From an uncultured bacterium (lineage in GTDB: Bacteria; UBP15; UBA6099; JAJRTR01), in assembly GCA_964595945.1 (NCBI GenBank), contig CAZQSL010000001.1, forward strand, positions 36,930 through 100,929: a stretch of 64,000 nucleotides of DNA, written 5' to 3'. Shown in pieces: positions 19,352-60,811 of this stretch (its first letter is position 1; every line of letters begins with the position of its first letter). Both the position numbers and the translations under genes were made by a program. The notes under the pieces are model-generated. The model did no database searches, had not been told where the DNA came from, and saw nothing but the letters and a program-made list of their open reading frames with translations.

Positions 19352-19472
19352 ACTTTTCCGACAAACGCTCCGGACTCTCCGTCAGATTCCGGCTGGCAGA
19401 CAGGCAGTACCCAAACCAGTTCTCATCTTTACGGGCGATAGCCCGCAAAGTTGCGATCAGTATACCCCCTGA

Positions 19473-19499
19473 AGCTCCCCACGCGGGAGCTTTTTTTTT
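19473..19499 (+). terminator. Rho-independent terminator downstream of ftsK
   Basis: GC hairpin agctccc-cacgc-gggagc followed by a 9-nt T run. Confidence 0.6.
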
Positions 19500-19552
19500 G
19501 CAGGCAGGCATGATACCAGCAGGATAGTTCGGAATGATAAAAACTGCTACAG

Positions 19553-19752
19553 AATATACTGAATATCAATAGAAATTCCCCATCCATTGTCATTGAAGTC
19601 TCCCGGGAAAAAACCTTGCTATAGTGAAAACATGTTTGTATTATCCGTATTAATCCGTGTCAGAAAGTCTTTATTGTTTTCCGATGCTACGCAAGATCAT
19701 CTCGACAGACCATAACCATACACAGGGGAATTCGATTGATATTTCGTATAAT
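19553..19752 (+). repeat. Composite dispersed repeat, copy 1 (28-nt block 19553-19580, 100-nt block 19652-19752)
   Basis: The 28-nt block aatatactgaatatcaatagaaattccc and the 100-nt block ending in tataat recur at 27531-27557 and 27652-27753 with about 85-90% identity. The spacers between blocks are unrelated. Confidence 0.7.
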
Positions 19753-19827
19753 CGTCACGGACATCTTTTCGAAAAGCAGGAATTTCCGGCAGCTGATGCT
19801 CGAGCAGCGTCATTACGCCCCCGCTCA

Positions 19828-20145
19828 TCACTTGCGATCTGATGGCATAGTGGGGGGCTGCTGATGGTGGATGCGGTTGACATCTTTGTGGTGAAAACAG
19901 TGGTAGCAGAGCACGCGCGAGACTGCCGGGCGGTTTTGCGCGGTGACAGAATACGAAATCTTCATACACGATCGGCAGCAGATACGGTGGCACTCCTCGC
20001 AACGGGAGTAGAGGTCGATAGCAAACGATATGCCGCAGATATCGCAGGTCGCGGGAGCGATGCCTTCTCTGATCATGTTGACCTCATTTCCGATACCGGT
20101 ATTCCGGCAAAAATGATAGTGTAGCGCAATCATGTCTGATGTCAA
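19828..20145 (-). CDS. Cysteine-rich putative double zinc-ribbon protein (hypothetical)
   Basis: Four CxxC-like pairs (CDIC, CEEC, CCRSC, CYHC). Transcribed divergently from bamA. No homology search was possible. Confidence 0.35.
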   Translation of the reverse strand: MTSDMIALHYHFCRNTGIGNEVNMIREGIAPATCDICGISFAIDLYSRCEECHRICCRSCMKISYSVTAQNRPAVSRVLCYHCFHHKDVNRIHHQQPPTMPSDRK

Positions 20146-27176: not shown

Positions 27177-27194
27177 CCCGAGGAGGTGTCAACC

Positions 27195-27470
27195 TTGTCC
27201 GCCACGCAACTGCCCCTGAAAATGTCCGTACTCCGCGAAACCACCACCGCGGCGCTCTCCCCCGCGCAGATCGTCGAAAGGCTCGCCCCCTCGTACGGCG
27301 GCGAAAAACAGCTCAACCTTTCGACTGTCGAGTCGCATCTCATGGCCCTCCGCGCAGTGGGACTCGTCGAGGCGGACAATCCGCGGATCATCGACGGCTC
27401 TCTTGTCCTCAGCTTCGCCGCTACCGATGCCGGTCGCGCTAAATTCGCTCAGTATGGAAATAATTCCTAA
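27195..27470 (+). CDS. Small hypothetical protein, possible winged-helix DNA-binding protein
   Basis: A TTG at 27195 lies 9 nt after a GAGGAGG RBS. The segment STVESHLMALRAVGLVE resembles an ArsR/MarR-type recognition helix. Confidence 0.35.
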   Translation: MSATQLPLKMSVLRETTTAALSPAQIVERLAPSYGGEKQLNLSTVESHLMALRAVGLVEADNPRIIDGSLVLSFAATDAGRAKFAQYGNNS

Positions 27471-27753
27471 CCGTTCACGGAATACTCGCGGAGGACCTTT
27501 TGTGCAGAAAAGGTCCTCCGCACCTCTCATATATACTGAATATCAACAGAAATTCCCTACCACAATTTATCGAAGCGACCCGATAGAGCAGCCTTGTATC
27601 AGGCGGGGATAACCCCAGCCCCTTCGAAAAACAGTCATGAGCTATCCGTGAAATCCGTGTCAAAAAGTTTTTTATTGTTTTCGGATGGTACACCAGATCA
27701 TCCCGGCAGACCATAACCATACGTTGGGAAATTCGATTGATATTTCATATAAT
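27468..27753 (+). repeat. Composite dispersed repeat, copy 2 (flank 27468-27491, palindromic hairpin 27490-27519, 28-nt block 27531-27557, 100-nt block 27652-27753)
   Basis: Shares the 28-nt and 100-nt blocks with copy 1. Its 5' flank plus hairpin recur inverted at 40223-40278. Its 28-nt block recurs inverted at 48262-48290. Confidence 0.7.
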
Positions 27754-27896
27754 ATTTCAATGTTTTTCTGGTAAACCATGAAATAGTGATGTGGGGTTAT
27801 GCGAGCCGGGCAAAGCCCGGAGAGGCGGGTTTTTATTGAGGAAATGTCTCTCCGGAAAGATGCTCGAATCGGGGAAACCCGGGGAGTCCGGGCGGC

Positions 27897-39393: not shown

Positions 39394-39423
39394 TAGATCA
39401 TACCGAAGTAACCGGAATTTATA

Positions 39424-39453
39424 GCCCCCGCGAGATACATCGGGGGCTTTTTT
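39424..39453 (+). terminator. Rho-independent terminator after the dockerin gene
   Basis: Hairpin gcccccg-cgagatacat-cgggggc followed by a T run. Confidence 0.65.
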
Positions 39454-40062
39454 GCGGGCGCTTCCTTCTTTTGGATACTTTGTGAAACATCCTTGTTGAT
39501 AATATTTCTGGCTTTCGCCATCCGAAATAGTACAATTCTTCGCTGCTTGCGGCGAATATGAACGTGTGCATCTTATGATACCCCGCAAGCGGCGTGGAAT
39601 TAGACCCGAAGAGAATGAATGACCCCGGAGCAAATTCTCTCCGATCAAACTATCCTTGTATGGTAAGCCCAATGCTGTTTACTTAAGCTGTCATTCCGGG
39701 ACGATGCCCCGGATTCTATGAGACATGAAGTCAGGAGGGGCTTTCGAATACAGATGTTATTATCTTAAGTAAACAGCATAGAGGCTAAGCCAGTGAAAAC
39801 TGAATTGCATCAGTTGGTAATTATAGCTTATGATGGCGGTATGGTATGATTCGCATTAGAGCCTGTCCACGAACTGTCGAGTTGCCGAATGACAATGTAT
39901 TTTCTATAACAATGCGGCATCATAATCGCTAACCATGAGGTATTATTGTAACATCGTCACAATCGTTTACGAGTTTTTAGCCAGGCTCATAAATGCTTGT
40001 CATTCTGAGCGAAGCGAAGAATCTTGCTTGCCTTTTCTTAACATTATCGGCAAGCGTTCACG

Positions 40063-40094
40063 ACAAGAGCATGGAGACCCCCTTTTTGAAAAAA
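40063..40094. repeat. GGAG...CTCC palindromic hairpin family member
   Basis: ggagaccccctttttgaaaaaatggggtctcc. Perfect long palindrome with a T-run/A-run interior. Confidence 0.6.
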
Positions 40095-40150
40095 TGGGGT
40101 CTCCAAACCTCTACCGAAAAACTTTATATGATATACTCCAGCCATTTTTT

Positions 40151-40188
40151 GCGGGTTACAAGCGGCATATCAGCCGCTTGTAACCCGC
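40151..40188. repeat. Perfect 16-bp-stem hairpin flanked by a T run (5') and an A run (3')
   Basis: gcgggttacaagcggc-atatca-gccgcttgtaacccgc. Looks like a bidirectional terminator between convergent genes. Confidence 0.55.
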
Positions 40189-40222
40189 AAAACCAGAGAA
40201 TCCTCCAAACATAGGGAGTTTT

Positions 40223-40278
40223 TTGGAGAGGTGCGGAGAACCTTTTTTGCAAAAAAGGTTCTCCGCGAGTATTCCGTG
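40223..40278. repeat. GGAG...CTCC palindromic hairpin plus inverted copy of the repeat-copy-2 flank
   Basis: gcggagaaccttttttgcaaaaaaggttctccgc, then cgagtattccgtgaacggttaac. This is the reverse complement of 27468-27519. Confidence 0.65.
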
Positions 40279-40478
40279 AACGGTTAACATTATCGCGCGT
40301 GCGGGGCTGAGGCGCGTTCCATCAGCCATTTGGTTATGACATACGCTTTTTCCAGCGCTACAGCTTCACTTGAAATCCCGCATCACCCCTATTCTAAAAT
40401 TTTTTCGGAGAGCAGGGGGCTCCGCCCCCTGCACCCCCACAAAGGATAAAAGATTAAAAGCAAAAAGGCTAAAAAAGA

Positions 40479-47775: not shown

Positions 47776-47804
47776 TTGACAGCCGAAAGAAACGGTGCAT
47801 AAAT
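47776..47804 (+). promoter_or_regulatory. Sigma-70-type promoter (TTGACA-17-ATAAAT)
   Basis: TTGACA at 47776-47781, a 17-nt spacer, and ATAAAT at 47799-47804. Immediately followed by GAAGGAGG and the ATG at 47816. Confidence 0.55.
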
Positions 47805-47815
47805 GAGAAGGAGGA

Positions 47816-47944
47816 ATGATGAAAATCAGCAGGAGCGAACACCATGCCACTCATCACATAGTTTCCGAAAGGCGTCAGCGCACAGCGGACAAGTTCAGCA
47901 AAGTAACAGCAAACGCTACAGCACAGACAATATCACACCTGTAG
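47816..47944 (+). CDS. Candidate 42-aa small basic His-rich protein (MMKISRSEHHATHHIVSERRQRTADKFSKVTANATAQTISHL)
   Basis: The ORF lies directly behind a consensus promoter and a GGAGG RBS. It is below the track's length cutoff. There is no downstream same-strand gene. The hairpin at 48155-48188 follows. Confidence 0.3.
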   Translation: MMKISRSEHHATHHIVSERRQRTADKFSKVTANATAQTISHL

Positions 47945-48154
47945 TCGTCGGCGTGTAGAGCCCCATTATCGGTAACGGCTTCAACGAATACTACTCGCTT
48001 TTCAGACGTACAACTTCCTGCCAGACGACATCCAAACCGCAAAGTCCGGTATTATGAGAATGGTTCACTTGGAGATGGAACTGCGACAACCAGAACAACG
48101 CCTGTAACAATAATTGGATTCTATCTATACGATAAATTATTTAAATTTGCCTAC

Positions 48155-48188
48155 CGGAGAAACCTTATTCGAGAAAAAGGTTTCTCCG
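48155..48188. repeat. GGAG...CTCC palindromic hairpin family member
   Basis: cggagaaaccttattcgagaaaaaggtttctccg between convergent genes. It is followed at 48262-48290 by an inverted copy of the 28-nt repeat block. Confidence 0.6.
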
Positions 48189-48421
48189 CACCTCTTCCCA
48201 AAAGCTTTATATGATTAACTTTTCTCCAAGTTACCGTTTCATTGTGCTACCCACAGCGGTAGGTAATTTCTATTGATATTCAGTATATTCCAATATTAGG
48301 AGGAACATCAATGAAAACGCAGGGAACCAGGCATCCATATCGGATGATCCTTTGTTCATAAAGGAGGCGTTCAGACGGCAGGATTAGGGATTTGCACAAA
48401 GTCTGAATTGGTGGAGCAATA

Positions 48422-52880: not shown

Positions 52881-53030
52881 TGACTCAGCACTCCTTCATG
52901 ATACTTCATCAGTTGTACTAACTGCGTGAGGCTTGATTTACAGCCATTATACCACGGGGCAACTGTCGAAAAAGGGCGGCAAAATGAAATCGCCGCCCTT
53001 TGGGGAAAGCGTATCAGAGAGCCGGAAAGA

Positions 53031-60746: not shown

Positions 60747-60786
60747 CCGGTGTGCCGCCTCAGGCGGAAAGATCAGAATAGCAAAA

Positions 60787-60811
60787 GGCGGGGAGTGATC
60801 CCCGCCTTTTT
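60787..60811. terminator. Bidirectional terminator between the transaldolase-like gene and hydA
   Basis: ggcgggga-gtga-tccccgcc, with an A run on the 5' side and a T run on the 3' side. Confidence 0.55.

Follow-up and report, generated by a model that had tools for sequence, protein, structure and literature searches.

What are the short sequences that recur, in different combinations, at four intergenic sites within a 64,000-nt stretch of DNA (hereafter, the window) from an uncultured bacterium? A sequence-only reading of the window had described them as one composite, module-shuffling family and offered three explanations: a MITE-like or recombination-scrambled element, a family of promoter/5'-UTR cassettes, or a small structured RNA family. 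The setting is core chromosome. The window holds a dcw cluster (PBP gene to ftsZ), sepF, proC, ftsK, bamA-skp-lpxD and glyQ, together with sugar-nucleotide genes, gdh, a PPDK-like gene, a GH38 mannosidase gene, uvrC and an [FeFe] hydrogenase gene.

All of the repeats listed in that reading were recovered to within a few bases, each of them far beyond chance expectation. The 28-nt block on which it was founded occurs three times with at most one mismatch, at 19554-19580 (+), 27531-27557 (+) and 48262-48288 (-), whereas 0 copies are expected (100 shuffles). The second shared block, described as ~100 nt long, aligns between 19642-19752 and 27643-27753 with 85% identity over 112 nt (E ~1e-29). A flank and hairpin said to recur in inverted orientation do so, 27468-27537 matching 40217-40286 at 89% over 70 nt (93% over the 58-61 nt aligned by BLAST), and a hairpin of the same family is found at 48155-48188, ~75 nt from the inverted 28-nt block. 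When the intergenic regions of the window were compared all against all, the repeats proved to be confined to the four sites originally counted, at 19.5, 27.5, 40 and 48 kb (sites 1, 2, 4 and 3, respectively); one further copy of the hairpin module, at 40073-40137, was added to the earlier inventory. The spacers that separate the 28-nt block from the longer one had been called unrelated; they are instead diverged, with ~50% identity and one 24-nt indel. The repeats stand, but the modules are better described as two families, A and B, whose members are nested or adjacent.

Family A is represented by two complete units, both on the plus strand. Unit 1 (19552-19755, 204 nt) consists of an L arm (19552-19581), a diverged middle, a conserved right block (19642-19724) and an R arm (19725-19755) that terminates in GTATAATC. 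Unit 2 (27529-27756, 228 nt) has its L arm at 27529-27558 and its R arm at 27726-27756, and the 24-nt insertion that it carries contains a small GGGG-ATAA-CCCC hairpin. The arms are imperfect terminal inverted repeats of ~30 nt (GAWTATAC..AATATCAAT..AATTCCCC). In unit 1, for example, GAATATACTGAATATCAATAGAAATTCCCC agrees with the reverse complement of the opposite arm, GATTATACGAAATATCAATCG-AATTCCCC, at 25 of 30 positions, and the inverted-repeat scores of unit 1 and unit 2 were each reached by 0 of 1000 shuffles. Within a unit the two arms differ by one indel and 4-5 substitutions. Because the differences between L-type and R-type arms are consistent across both units, the entire A unit must have been copied. 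Since the 28-nt block and the TATAAT-bearing end of the longer one are inverted copies of one another, the TATAAT is the outer end of a terminal inverted repeat; it is mirrored by TATAC at the other end of the unit.

Alignment of the two units showed that homology begins and ends abruptly, exactly at the outer ends of the arms. Identity is 26/30 in the L arm, ~30/60 plus the one indel in the middle, 69/84 in the right block and 27/31 in the R arm, and it falls to the random level in the flanks (3/12 on the left and 6/20 on the right). A simple local or segmental duplication is ruled out by these unrelated flanks and by an inverted solo arm 20 kb away. Conservation along the family is uneven (27/28 for the L arm, ~50% for the middle and 82-85% for the right block), and uniform neutral decay does not predict such a pattern.

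The remaining member of family A is a solo L-type arm on the minus strand (48258-48292), which is identical to unit 1 at 28 of 29 positions and has CCTACC in common with unit 2. A candidate decayed R-type arm lies at 48122-48155 (+), where TATACGA (48126-48132) is accompanied by AATTTGCCTACCG, a 13-nt inverted match to the inner end of the solo arm that falls where a decayed right arm would sit. The score of this partner arm was equalled by 188 of 1000 shuffles, which is not significant; site 3 is therefore ruled out statistically as a complete A unit, and a decayed unit there is a possibility only. Two small reading frames with strong ribosome-binding sites occur in the same region. A 41-aa ORF (47819-47944) is preceded by TTGACA-17-TAAATG, and a 16-aa ORF (ATG at 48302) starts 12 nt outside the solo arm, the outer end of which reads TATATT toward it. 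Coding scores for both (47776-47944 and 48290-48352) are near zero.

Family B has one complete element, a 234-nt segment at site 4 (40050-40283) with the termini CGTTCACG and CGTGAACG. Its left arm (40050-40137, +; hairpin 40072-40105) and right arm (40200-40283, -; hairpin 40233-40266) are inverted with respect to each other, are ~85 nt long and match at 65 of 107 aligned columns. Between them lies a central palindrome (40147-40192) with a perfect 20-bp stem, TTTTGCGGGTTACAAGCGGC-ATATCA-GCCGCTTGTAACCCGCAAAA (-37.7 kcal/mol, z -12.6), which has no second copy within the 64-kb window. The predicted folds of the element are very stable. As RNA, the 231 nt from 40060 to 40290 fold at -111 kcal/mol (z -14.5), and as single-stranded DNA the element itself, 40050-40283, folds at -71.8 kcal/mol (z -12.5), with CGTTCACG pairing to CGTGAACG so that the structure runs from end to end.

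An exact 12-nt direct repeat, TTAACATTATCG, flanks the site-4 element, with its left copy at 40038-40049 (+) and its right copy at 40284-40295 (+). These are the two occurrences of the 12-mer in the window, where 0.13 are expected, and a direct repeat as long in the same geometry was obtained in 5 of 20000 random placements. On sequence grounds the repeat is a candidate target-site duplication, seen at one element only. A second B copy, the solo arm at 27.47 kb, has a flank (ATAATTCCTAAC) with partial similarity to the 12-mer read in reverse complement; the boundary between element and target is consequently uncertain, and part of the 12-nt "duplication" could be element sequence or a preferred target. 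The search for target-site duplications that the sequence-only reading had recommended gave this candidate for family B, and none was detected at either family A unit with any tested definition of the ends.

Two solo B arms, both in plus orientation, are located away from site 4. The first (27468-27528; hairpin 27488-27521, 14-bp stem) has 93% identity to the site-4 right arm and adjoins family A unit 2. The second is a fragment (48155-48220) with 77% identity to the site-4 left arm, in which a hairpin with a 12-bp stem (48155-48188) is followed by GCACCTCT..CTTTATATGAT. The four B hairpins are G+C-rich, ~34 nt long and built on perfect 10-15-bp stems, with predicted energies of -18 to -27 kcal/mol (z -5.6 to -7.1). 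Perfect hairpins with a stem of 9 bp or more number eight in the 64 kb, and family B accounts for three of them; the remaining B hairpin contains one mismatch. The stem sequences vary among the copies (GGAGGACC, GGAGAACC, GGAGAAACC and GGAGACCCC), and every change is matched on the opposite strand. At site 2 the TAA stop codon (27468-27470) of a 94-aa gene at 27186-27470 coincides with the first three bases of the solo arm. This gene is well supported (coding score 0.43, GC3 0.72), and the B insertion may have reshaped its C-terminus.

Each of the four sites is bordered by a convergent gene pair: ftsK (+) and a small, putative Cys-rich ORF (-) at site 1, the 94-aa gene (+) and glyQ (-) at site 2, genes for a dockerin protein (+) and an FGE-sulfatase/PKD protein (-) at site 4, and the PPDK-like gene (+) and a membrane protein gene (-) at site 3. 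When intergenic regions of at least 100 nt are compared, elements are present in 4 of the 5 convergent regions and in 0 of the 8 divergent or co-directional ones (Fisher p ~0.007). Two of the upstream genes have canonical terminators of their own. The ftsK intrinsic terminator (19471-19493, +; 9-bp stem and T-run) is upstream of unit 1 and outside it, and the stem and T-run of the dockerin gene are at ~39423-39454, the site-4 element lying beyond them. The idea that the B hairpins are ordinary terminators was rejected on the same evidence, in that they are without T-runs and that, at sites 1 and 4, the elements come after genuine terminators with a stem and T-run.

Several other features of these intergenic regions were recorded. 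The sole convergent region of at least 100 nt that has no repeat element is occupied by a palindrome at 60783-60810, which, like another at 52971-53001, is an ordinary A-run/stem/T-run sequence resembling a bidirectional terminator. The Cys-rich ORF at site 1 (19828-20076, -) lies between ftsK and bamA; its putative product, of 82 aa, has four CxxC-like pairs and matches nothing in Pfam or NCBIfam. The ORF has a gene-like GC3 of 0.69 and a weak codon score (0.07).

We consider it probable that A and B are two families of small, non-coding, non-autonomous MITE-like elements that have become mosaic by nesting and decay, and of the three explanations first offered the MITE-like one is favoured. 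Several lines of evidence point in this direction: the arms are inverted, the boundaries are sharp, the copies are multiple, non-coding and restricted to convergent intergenic DNA, and one of them has a 12-nt flanking direct repeat. The complete copies are 204 and 228 nt long in family A and 234 nt in family B. Terminal inverted repeats exceed shuffled expectation in A and in B match at the 65/107 columns given above, with pairing termini. Dispersal within 64 kb amounts to two units and one solo arm for A and to one element and two solo arms for B, and identity between the flanks of the dispersed copies is at the random level. MITEs in general provide an analogue for the mode of action (PMC10969869).

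The coding capacity of the elements agrees with the earlier statement that they do not encode a transposase. No reading frame is open in both A units and no ORF is conserved between them. Differences between the units fall on the three codon positions in the ratio 8/4/3, which is weak 3-periodicity at best. The start of a short minus-strand ORF, MVMVCRDDL, shows three synonymous changes, yet its stop is not conserved. Among the ~50 genes of the 64-kb window there is likewise no gene for a transposase, recombinase, invertase or RAYT-like protein. We infer both the mobility of the elements and the existence of a partner transposase. Such an enzyme, encoded elsewhere in the genome, would recognise the arms and mobilise the elements in trans. 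Insertions would survive only where they are harmless, which is to say between converging genes and, where this was checked, beyond terminators. Solo arms would arise afterwards, through deletion, through insertion into or beside an existing copy and through recombination among copies, and each site would be left with its own subset of modules.

It is unlikely, in our judgement, that the B hairpins and perhaps the A arms are instead host-serving elements of the REP/BIME type, kept by selection as 3'-end RNA stabilisers, read-through barriers or sites for DNA-binding proteins and spread by way of a domesticated tyrosine transposase. The similarities are nonetheless several. Family B, like REPs and REPINs, comprises ~34-nt G+C-rich extragenic hairpins at gene 3' ends that occur both as singlets and, at site 4, as a spacer-separated inverted pair (PMC3116915, PMC3337134), and its mosaic with other short motifs is reminiscent of BIMEs. 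All four hairpins are oriented along the transcription of the upstream gene, their stems stay paired although their sequences differ, and the L arm of family A is more conserved than the remainder of the unit. However, matched changes in a palindrome can also originate at the DNA level, and there are four hairpins only; at sites 1 and 4, moreover, the ordinary terminators upstream imply that hairpins are not needed for termination. The site-4 pair spans 234 nt, above the typical size of a REPIN, and encloses the extra palindrome with the 20-bp stem. Transposition of the IS200/IS605 type, to which RAYT-type transposition belongs, creates no target-site duplication on insertion, and a 12-nt flanking direct repeat is unexpected from a single-strand mechanism of this kind. 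Assignment of family B to the REP/RAYT group fails because of that repeat and because there is no RAYT (Y1 transposase) gene, which as a rule would have REPs on either side of it, among the ~50 window genes.

Invertons offer a very unlikely reading of family A, in which a site-specific recombinase would invert the ~150 nt enclosed by the 30-nt arms, thereby turning a promoter around, and possession of the same arm would identify the loci of a regulon under one recombinase. Known invertons consist of 100-250 nt bounded by inverted repeats of 10-40 nt, and several loci can have one repeat in common (PMC11602134). The layout of family A, with 30-nt inverted repeats around ~150-170 nt and the same repeat at several loci, agrees with such invertible promoters. 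A sigma-70-like TTGGGA-18-TATAAT is present in unit 2, and the L arm is the best conserved part of the unit, as expected of a recombinase site. But both units lie between converging genes and neither is upstream of any gene, so that neither orientation drives one; the TATAAT is part of the arm, and unit 1 lacks a conserved -35 partner for it. In addition, an indel and 4-5 substitutions distinguish the arms, no recombinase gene is nearby and no invertase gene is in the window. The sharp end of homology at the outer arms is equally expected for an inserted element.

Highly improbable, by our estimate, is a related proposal that the A units are invertible or exchangeable cassettes served by a recombinase, with the L arm as the crossover site and outward -10 boxes that switch antisense transcription. 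If it were true, recombination between the arms of separate loci would account for the shuffled modules, antisense transcripts would enter the 3' ends of glyQ and of the small Cys-rich ORF upstream of bamA, and a regulatory recombination system at gene 3' ends would exist in a lineage without a cultured relative.

We attach the same very low credence to the proposal that the 112-nt block arose by duplication of a small-RNA gene or promoter cassette and is transcribed independently, or that its TATAAT drives short antisense RNAs into the 3' ends of minus-strand genes. A perfect TATAAT ends both units, and the block is 85% conserved, compared with ~50% for the adjacent spacer. About 55-80 nt past the TATAAT of unit 2, where there is no plus-strand gene, a plus-strand hairpin at 27805-27835 (CCGGGCAAAGCCCGG / CCCG..CGGG) is followed by the T-run TTTTTATT; it is antisense to the 3' end of glyQ, was not reported by the terminator scan, and could end a short antisense RNA. 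On the other hand, on both strands the consensus of the 112-nt block folds at ~-7 kcal/mol and shows 0 compensatory pairs, which is no stable fold. Rfam gave 0 matches at gathering thresholds, relaxed thresholds yielding generic hairpin matches only, far below gathering, and a search for tRNA and tmRNA genes found nothing relevant and no tRNAs. The structured-RNA explanation of this block is accordingly not supported. The promoter/5'-UTR cassette fares no better, given that all copies are at the 3' ends of converging genes and, at sites 1 and 4, past a canonical terminator. The -35 box is found in one copy only, the two TATAAT boxes are followed by unrelated sequences (6/20 identical), and the mirroring of TATAAT at the other arm suggests symmetry rather than a dedicated promoter. 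Finally, a dif/Xer site, brought to mind by the 28-nt length of the first block and the proximity of ftsK, was dismissed for want of a conserved XerD-arm motif and because the copies form inverted pairs.

Comparison with known families of small intergenic repeats places the MITE-like elements in context. In Correia elements (CREE), inverted repeats create promoters at either or both ends (PMC2649163). Family A resembles them in being ~100-250 nt long, gene-less and multi-copy, in having inverted repeats of ~26-30 nt that can fold the whole unit into a long hairpin, and in having arms whose outer ends bear -10-like hexamers directed outward. These hexamers could act as promoters, and the highly stable hairpins predicted for family B could shape read-through 3' transcripts. 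The differences from CREE are also clear: no duplication of TA or of any other target was seen, the internal sequence is far less conserved between copies, and the host belongs to an uncultured lineage rather than to Neisseria. The A arms are presumably unrelated in sequence to the 26-bp Correia repeat of Neisseria. Correia elements have a central IHF site; the arms were also considered as IHF sites, five of them containing TATCAA, but the full consensus (WATCAANNNNTTR) has no exact match in any arm.

The BOX, RUP and SPRITE repeats of the pneumococcus are unrelated small intergenic repeats that coexist in one genome; BOX is assembled from boxA, boxB and boxC modules, and some copies of these repeats resemble terminators (PMC3049150). 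Here, too, several families share the intergenic DNA of one genome, are modular and have stable predicted folds. The order of modules is fixed in BOX, whereas order and orientation vary in the window, and the two cases share no sequence similarity and come from different phyla. Judged by their sequences, A and B are not members of the Correia, REP/REPIN/BIME or BOX/RUP/SPRITE families.

Related copies were also sought beyond the window. A search of reference genomes used an 18-nt pattern, which is too short to be selective; among the matches listed, 0 of 100 loci had the longer block and flanks, these matches are chance, and the search carries no weight in either direction. A 22-nt pattern gave two matches in metagenomes, both in apparent unrelated coding sequence and both judged to be chance, and no match came from plasmid and phage collections or from three viral scans. 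The nearest relatives of this bacterium, as measured by BamA, are too distant to reveal empty sites. The closest BamA among 5.8 billion proteins has 65% identity, and the nearest relatives range from 58 to 65%. Loci around these homologues, ~42 kb of distinct sequence, contain no similar DNA, and their synteny with the window differs around ftsK and after lpxD. Neither an autonomous partner, nor an empty site, nor an extra copy was found in the loci of these relatives or in the plasmid, phage and viral collections.

If the MITE-like interpretation is correct, A and B are two previously undescribed families of small mobile repeats in a poorly sampled, uncultured bacterial lineage, and their arms would point to a transposase that recognises them. 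Repeats of this kind break or confuse metagenome assemblies and gene callers. In the window, one repeat supplies the stop-codon region of the real 94-aa gene and others create spurious small ORFs. Such repeats also mark permissive sites in a compact genome and are usable as strain markers. They raise no new biological question: mosaic extragenic repeats are familiar, as are MITEs and REPs. Nothing points to a function other than selfish spread for either family, and the elements look like an ordinary kind of genomic parasite that has accumulated between convergent housekeeping genes.

Some minor observations concern the window at large and the 1.1-kb intergenic region of site 4. Near 27.5 kb the plus strand gives way to the minus strand as the one bearing most genes, and cumulative GC skew is lowest near 31-32 kb, with C exceeding G on the coding strand; because the skew tracks the coding strand, it is not readable as a signal of an origin or terminus. 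The site-4 region contains, apart from the B element, a long hairpin at 39655-39795 (-49 kcal/mol, z -4.0) that has no Rfam match and includes a perfect 16-nt inverted repeat (39672-39687 and 39764-39779) enclosing the small palindrome GTCATTCCGGGACGATGCCCCGGATTC. Short palindromic motifs at 39690-39716 and 40001-40025 both open with TGTCATTC and continue as ..CCGGGACGATGCCCCGGATTC and ..TGAGCGAAGCGAAGAATC, respectively, and may resemble a short repeat known from many bacterial genomes. The motif at 40001-40025 gives rise to the spurious peptide "CHSERSEES" in an ORF at 39935-40183.
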